Shown piece by piece: positions 49,018 through 49,262 of a stretch of DNA of 64,000 nucleotides. The notes below the pieces were generated by a model that was given only the letters and a program-made list of their open reading frames with translations, was not told the DNA's origin and did not search any database. Each line of letters starts with the position of its first letter. The first letter of the stretch is position 1. Source of the DNA: Escherichia coli (GTDB taxonomy: Bacteria; Pseudomonadota; Gammaproteobacteria; Enterobacterales; Enterobacteriaceae); the NCBI RefSeq assembly GCF_003334405.1, contig NZ_QOWM01000001.1; one strand, given 5' to 3'. Position numbers and translations under genes: made by a program.

Positions 49018-49112
49018 TGAATAAAACCACGAGTTCCTGGTGTGCCTTATTCGGCCTGCTAGTTCGAATTTAATTTACGGTTTTTATGTGGTTTTAGGGA
49101 TAAACACAAGGA

Positions 49113-49187
49113 TGGTGTCCCCTGCAGGAATCGAACCTGCAATTAGCCCTTAGGAGGGGCTCGTTATATCCATTTAACTAAGAGGAC
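49113..49187 (-). tRNA. argW: tRNA-Arg (anticodon CCU)
   Basis: Reverse complement reads GTCCTCTTAGTTAAATGGATATAACGAGCCCCTCCTAAGGGCTAATTGCAGGTTCGATTCCTGCAGGGGACACCA; 75 nt. Confidence 0.9.
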
Positions 49188-49262
49188 AATGCGGCATGAG
49201 TATACCCGCTAATGGAGTGCGGGGTAAGTACGCTGCCGCTCGATTGCTTAAACCCTCGCCAT

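Follow-up and report, generated by a model that had tools for sequence, protein, structure and literature searches.

[quoted passage not shown] The site is read as unoccupied because its core is single, the tRNA is intact, both arms are collinear with K-12 and element genes are absent. That argW can hold an empty attB with the published core is textbook biology. Both att sites of the gene, the 3′ core and a 23-nucleotide stretch at the 5′ end, are empty in the window.

Anatomy of the dsdC-argW-yfdC locus

The gene dsdC (48082–49017, plus strand) codes for a LysR-type regulator of D-serine utilisation and was delimited by the end of its open reading frame, a 313-codon frame closing at 49017, and by annotation mapped from NZ_CP025903.1. 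Its DNA is 100% identical to that of K-12, and in genomes with an element at argW it is the bacterial neighbour on the attR side. A spacer of exactly 95 bp follows (49018–49112), forming the bacterial right arm of attB, and then argW itself (49113–49187, minus strand), an intact tRNA-Arg(CCU) gene called by ARAGORN (anticodon CCT) and by the Rfam tRNA model (49116–49187, minus strand, 63.4 bits) and identical in sequence to argW of K-12. The 16-nucleotide attB core, CTGCAGGGGACACCAT, spans 49112–49127 on the minus strand and consists of the last 15 nucleotides of argW plus one base; it is where IntS-type integrases cross over. At the opposite end of the gene, the first 23 nucleotides of the tRNA (49165–49187, TATATCCATTTAACTAAGAGGAC on the plus strand) make up the second, likewise unoccupied, att site. 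Seventy-five base pairs beyond the 5′ end of argW, and 245 bp from dsdC, lies yfdC (49263–50195, minus strand), the attL-side bacterial gene of the formate/nitrite transporter family, recognised from a 310-codon frame and from its annotation in NZ_CP025903.1. The original prediction had ended dsdC at 49017, set the argW 3′ end at 49113 on the minus strand after a gap of about 95 bp and put yfdC beyond; ARAGORN, Rfam and the open reading frames reproduce this layout exactly.

The argW–yfdC intergenic region (49188–49262, minus strand) is outside the 3′ attB. It presumably contains the argW promoter, with a candidate TATACT element about 14–19 nucleotides ahead of the tRNA 5′ end and, after it, a G+C-rich discriminator; a consensus sigma-70 promoter scan of this region gave no formal match. 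Conservation is high from 49150 to 49700: in 5424 of 5426 complete E. coli genomes, 80% or more of this interval is covered. Strain 300709 (NZ_CP025903.1) is 100% identical to the window across 48600–49700, and its gene order, emrKY-dsdA-dsdX-dsdC-argW-yfdC-mlaA-yfdF, is made up of core genes only, with no phage genes.

The 3′ attB core and its arms in K-12

The cryptic prophage CPS-53 (KpLE1), which the original prediction had placed at argW in K-12, is annotated in MG1655 at 2466369–2476583, starting within the last 15 nucleotides of the tRNA gene; it integrates here and not elsewhere. Its intS gene adjoins the tRNA 3′ end. At the other end of the prophage, torI is followed by a 15-nucleotide pseudo-tRNA, pawZ, which stands 95 bp from dsdC. 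In a three-way alignment, the window tracks attL (yfdC–argW) as far as the tRNA 3′ end and attR (pawZ–dsdC) from there on, and CTGCAGGGGACACCAT is the sole stretch common to the window and to both K-12 junctions. By megablast, positions 1–2385 of the K-12 flank match window positions 51496–49112 with one mismatch (99.96% identity), positions 12585–15001 match 49127–46711 with none (100% identity), and the two alignments overlap on the window at 49112–49127 only, which is 16 nucleotides. The comparison of attL with attR that had been proposed for finding the core thus delivered it at these positions. The core is single-copy, with one match in the 64 kb even when up to three mismatches are allowed. 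Judged by these alignments, the window is exactly the attB expected from recombining K-12 attL with attR.

The same 16-nucleotide duplicated core has been published for KplE1, which is reported to excise in vivo though defective (PMC2951348). Sf6, HK620, KplE1 and Kapi1 have this attP in common, and deletion of attB abolished Kapi1 integration at the locus, with 0/24 colonies as against 19/20 (PMC8787464). In the proposed mechanism, IntS-type tyrosine integrases would recombine a phage attP carrying the identical core with the site in the window, and the core would be duplicated upon integration. The phage-borne copy would then complete argW beside intS, and the original argW 3′ end would be left as a pseudo-tRNA of 15–16 nucleotides, 95 bp from dsdC. 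The state of the window would correspond either to no such integration or to one that was precisely reversed. The published experiments, performed on the same core in other strains, suggest that the attB of the window is competent for integration.

Compared with the KplE1/CPS-53 site of K-12, the window has the same core and both bacterial arms, with the 95-bp spacer and argW at 100% identity; in K-12, the 10.2 kb of prophage are flanked by the recombined attL and attR, whereas the window holds the unrecombined single site. The P22-like, O-antigen-modifying phages Kapi1, HK620 and Sf6 have an attB with the same core at the argW 3′ end. The duplication described for Kapi1 is 17 bp long (AATGGTGTCCCCTGCAG); the window has G for its first A and matches at 16 of 17 positions, the matching 16 nucleotides being the shared core. 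In the Kapi1-free strain KP7, the dsdC–argW–yfdC context is as in the window (PMC8787464). The locus also coincides with the argW–dsdCXA variable genetic island of Moritz and Welch 2006, as cited in PMC8787464. The variability found in the survey below reproduces that of the island, and relative to the island variants the window is of the simplest kind: dsdCXA is intact and directly adjoins argW.

An additional att site at the argW 5′ end

The 5′ site, also empty, was missed by the original prediction. In an O157:H16 genome, dsdC, the spacer and an intact tRNA are found together, and an integrase lies past the tRNA 5′ end. Between argW and yfdC, this genome has a 43.7-kb prophage whose tail genes are myovirus-like. 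The first 23 nucleotides of the tRNA, TATATCCATTTAACTAAG[A/G]GGAC, are directly repeated at the two ends of the prophage, the copies differing by one A/G substitution (L006:188-262 and L006:43900-44046, compared with window 49165–49187). O145:H28 RM13514 has the same breakpoint (L011:8990-9099), and next to yfdC it carries a prophage gene of 8.4 kb. The 23-mer has a single exact match in the window, still joined to its native upstream region and to yfdC. The 5′ junction of argW is intact in 5191 of the 5426 complete genomes; the other 235 (4.3%) are without it.

The integrase of the 5′ site belongs to a different family; it shares only about 30% identity with IntS, in the N-terminal domain alone, and is 60–80% identical to the integrases of 130 phage records; 110 of the 541 matching phage records, all identity bands included, are named ‘Stx2a-converting’. 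A prophage integrated at this end, be it one of the Stx2a-type short-tailed phages or the 43.7-kb myovirus-like prophage, puts phage DNA in place of the first 23 nucleotides of argW and of its entire presumed promoter region. The phage-supplied tRNA 5′ end converts, in the O157:H16 lysogen, the U5·G wobble of the acceptor stem into a C5–G pair. In the O157 literature, the Stx2a prophage of TW14359 is placed between yfdC and intS, and the order yfdC-argW-intC is scored as ‘intact argW’ (PMC8309913). This ‘intact argW’ corresponds to the 5′ site, even where an intS element occupies the 3′ end. The Stx2a prophages of O157:H7 clade 8 (TW14359), O145:H28 and others use the same tRNA gene, and their 23-mer target is intact in the window; they sit at the tRNA 5′ end between yfdC and argW, whereas IntS-type elements use the 3′ core.

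The evidence leans, if modestly, towards argW having two independent att sites, one at each end, and a 5′ crossover that brings in a phage-supplied promoter may constitute an under-described class. The tRNA-targeting integrases are known to use 3′-side sublocations, and it is for this reason that crossover at the 5′ end is possibly under-described.

Occupancy of the argW 3′ end among complete genomes

All 5426 complete E. coli genomes of the survey set match the region. The comparison of the junction across E. coli genomes, which had been put forward as a check, found dsdC, argW and yfdC contiguous in 911 of them (16.8%), on the criterion of one place covering at least 80% of 48600–49700; this count joins pieces across up to about 1 kb, and a small insertion is possible in a few of the genomes. 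The remaining 83% are interrupted at the argW 3′ end, in keeping with the earlier description of argW as a frequent target. [quoted passage not shown] A search from dsdC inward gave 2381 genomes with 80% or more of 48800–49187 covered; non-contiguous matches end at query position 328 (window 49127), the last base of the core, or, in more divergent lineages, a few bases past it. In about 27% of genomes, dsdC and attR are split from argW, and in the rest the dsdC 3′ end or the spacer is missing or replaced; about half of the genomes sampled gave no match to either. Empty 3′ sites also occur in E. coli B and BL21 strains and in diverse backgrounds, among them genomes only 95–97% identical. The empty state is that of a minority, yet unremarkable.

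The locus can also be rearranged on its dsdC side. In O157:H7 TX 265-1 (L003:5663-11009), csc sucrose genes replace dsdC and the dsdX 5′ region beside argW, and csc and argW are separated by an intS element that has a serine recombinase and remnants of P22-like tail and ejection genes. The presence of csc in place of dsd in O157:H7 is the known dsd/csc trade-off at the argW locus.

The remainder of the window compared with its relatives

The window is 99.8–100% identical to MG1655 throughout; it is precisely without CPS-53, lacks IS186C and further differs by a 24-bp indel and about a dozen SNPs. Insertion sequences and CPS-53 aside, the window and K-12 are collinear, with about 99.98% identity. 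At 11435–11446, between nupC and pdeA, there is no insertion sequence in the window, while K-12 has IS186C and strain 300709 has IS421 at this place. The ISEc20 of strain 300709 between fadL and yfdF is absent as well (52613).

ARAGORN finds four tRNA genes on the 64-kb window. The stretches 6090–6244 and 8944–9019 contain only one tRNA-Val, beside tRNA-Lys, and one tRNA-Ala, respectively, and at these loci K-12 and strain 300709 have the tandem arrays valU-valX-valY-lysV and alaX-alaW. Either recombination has truly removed the other tandem copies, or the repeats collapsed during assembly. No clean single-Val match was shown among the complete genomes, in a search confounded by the joining of repeated pieces.

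The gene fadL (about 52874–54190, minus strand) has an in-frame 24-bp deletion at about 53575 that removes eight residues, QSPAGQTQ, corresponding to residues 197–204 of the K-12 precursor; FadL is otherwise identical. FadL is a long-chain fatty acid channel, and the K-12 record also annotates it as the phage T2 receptor. The 151-bp region around the deletion is at least 99% identical in one of the 5426 complete genomes, and other strains have short-loop fadL alleles of different sequence.

Hidden remnant, artefact or cured site

The original prediction had reported no integrase, glucosyltransferase or other phage-like open reading frame at the locus, and this held under direct search. The 10.2-kb interior of CPS-53 has no blastn match anywhere in the 64-kb window. 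Among 14 CPS-53 proteins compared by tblastn, none gives a significant match (best E = 0.069). IntS, YfdG/H/I, TorI and other CPS-53-like open reading frames are absent between dsdC and yfdC and window-wide, and a relocation of CPS-53 genes to another part of the window was rejected on the same tblastn and blastn searches. A short remnant with att repeats within the 95-bp junction, which the original prediction had named as the finding that would speak against it, did not appear, either in a search allowing up to three mismatches or in local alignment with shuffled controls. Aligned locally with the tRNA, the spacer scores no higher than chance, being equalled by 49–78% of shuffles, and no direct repeat of the tRNA 3′ end in the window scores above chance. 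A degraded prophage or island remnant at argW was discarded as a candidate, attL/attR duplication and residual element genes both being absent. For the spacer and the argW trailer, a structured RNA and a terminator were both rejected on the results of Rfam, a consensus scan and folding: at E ≤ 1 over the region, Rfam returned the tRNA only, plus a meaningless plastid match far below its gathering score; the consensus scan found neither a terminator nor a promoter in the spacer; and the RNA fold of the spacer against shuffles has z = −0.02.

One feature of the spacer could still be taken for a decayed second att copy of an older element. At 49038–49046, the 9-mer TGGTGTGCC agrees, read in the same orientation, with the tRNA 3′-terminal 9-mer TGGTGTCCC in 8 of 9 bases, and a post hoc estimate gives about a 1% chance of this for that anchored 9-mer in 95 bp. 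Such a copy is nevertheless very improbable. The full 16-nucleotide core matches the region of 49038–49046 at 10 of 16 positions only, by base count, and this place went unreported in the three-mismatch search; the match of the 9-mer does not extend, local alignment does no better than shuffles, and the stretch from the 9-mer to the tRNA is free of element sequence. The whole spacer, TGGTGTGCC included, is 100% identical to the pawZ–dsdC spacer of K-12, and is the unchanged bacterial flank beside attR there and in other lysogens, where the dsdC-side match continues through all 95 bp and stops at 49127. Even less credence is due to the view that the empty site arose as an artefact of assembly or was engineered by deletion in a laboratory derivative of K-12. 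The tandem tRNA genes are fewer than in K-12 (one Val rather than three, one Ala rather than two), which could be short-read repeat collapse, and prophage-free K-12 strains have been built (PMC3105296). However, an assembler cannot collapse a 10-kb prophage bounded by 16-nucleotide repeats, and the identical junction is present in 911 independent complete genomes. With SNPs scattered along it, an indel in fadL and no IS186C, the window shows natural divergence from MG1655 and not the marks of a K-12 construct; an engineered prophage-free K-12 was rejected on these grounds.

The unoccupied attB is the preferred reading, and its history may be told in two ways. A never-occupied and a cured site would have the same sequence, because excision by a tyrosine integrase restores attB exactly. 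Of the ‘naive attB’ state proposed originally, the unoccupied part stands, the window being the attL arm, the core and the attR arm in succession; the part that implies a site never used is the likelier of two histories for which the sequence reads alike. That an IntS-type prophage such as CPS-53 was once integrated and then removed scarlessly by IntS and the excisionase TorI is possible, though the less likely course. It would fit the near-identity over 64 kb to K-12, which carries CPS-53 at argW, the reported in vivo excision of the defective KplE1 (PMC2951348) and a survey in which occupation of the argW 3′ end is the common state. Yet the full 10.2-kb CPS-53 is present in 362 genomes only, 359 of them at 99% identity or more, and these are essentially the K-12 lineage, a distribution that fits lineage-specific gain in K-12 as well as loss in the window. 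The spread of empty sites over diverse backgrounds, from the B strains to genomes only 95–97% identical, also weighs against curing.

Implications for lysogeny at argW

The empty argW site is in itself of little import beyond annotation, and it makes no new question testable. The strain is without the CPS-53 functions of K-12, namely TorI, the YfdGHI O-antigen glucosylation genes and the YodE toxin. With about 99.98% identity to the K-12 backbone, it forms with K-12 a natural near-isogenic pair for the presence and absence of CPS-53. Lysogeny at argW should be open in the source strain to IntS-type seroconverting phages (relatives of Kapi1, HK620 and Sf6), and to Stx2a-type phages through the 5′ site. 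If argW does have an att site at each end, a crossover at the 5′ one would put expression of tRNA-Arg(CCU) under a phage-supplied promoter, and the window would represent a naive substrate for both sites.
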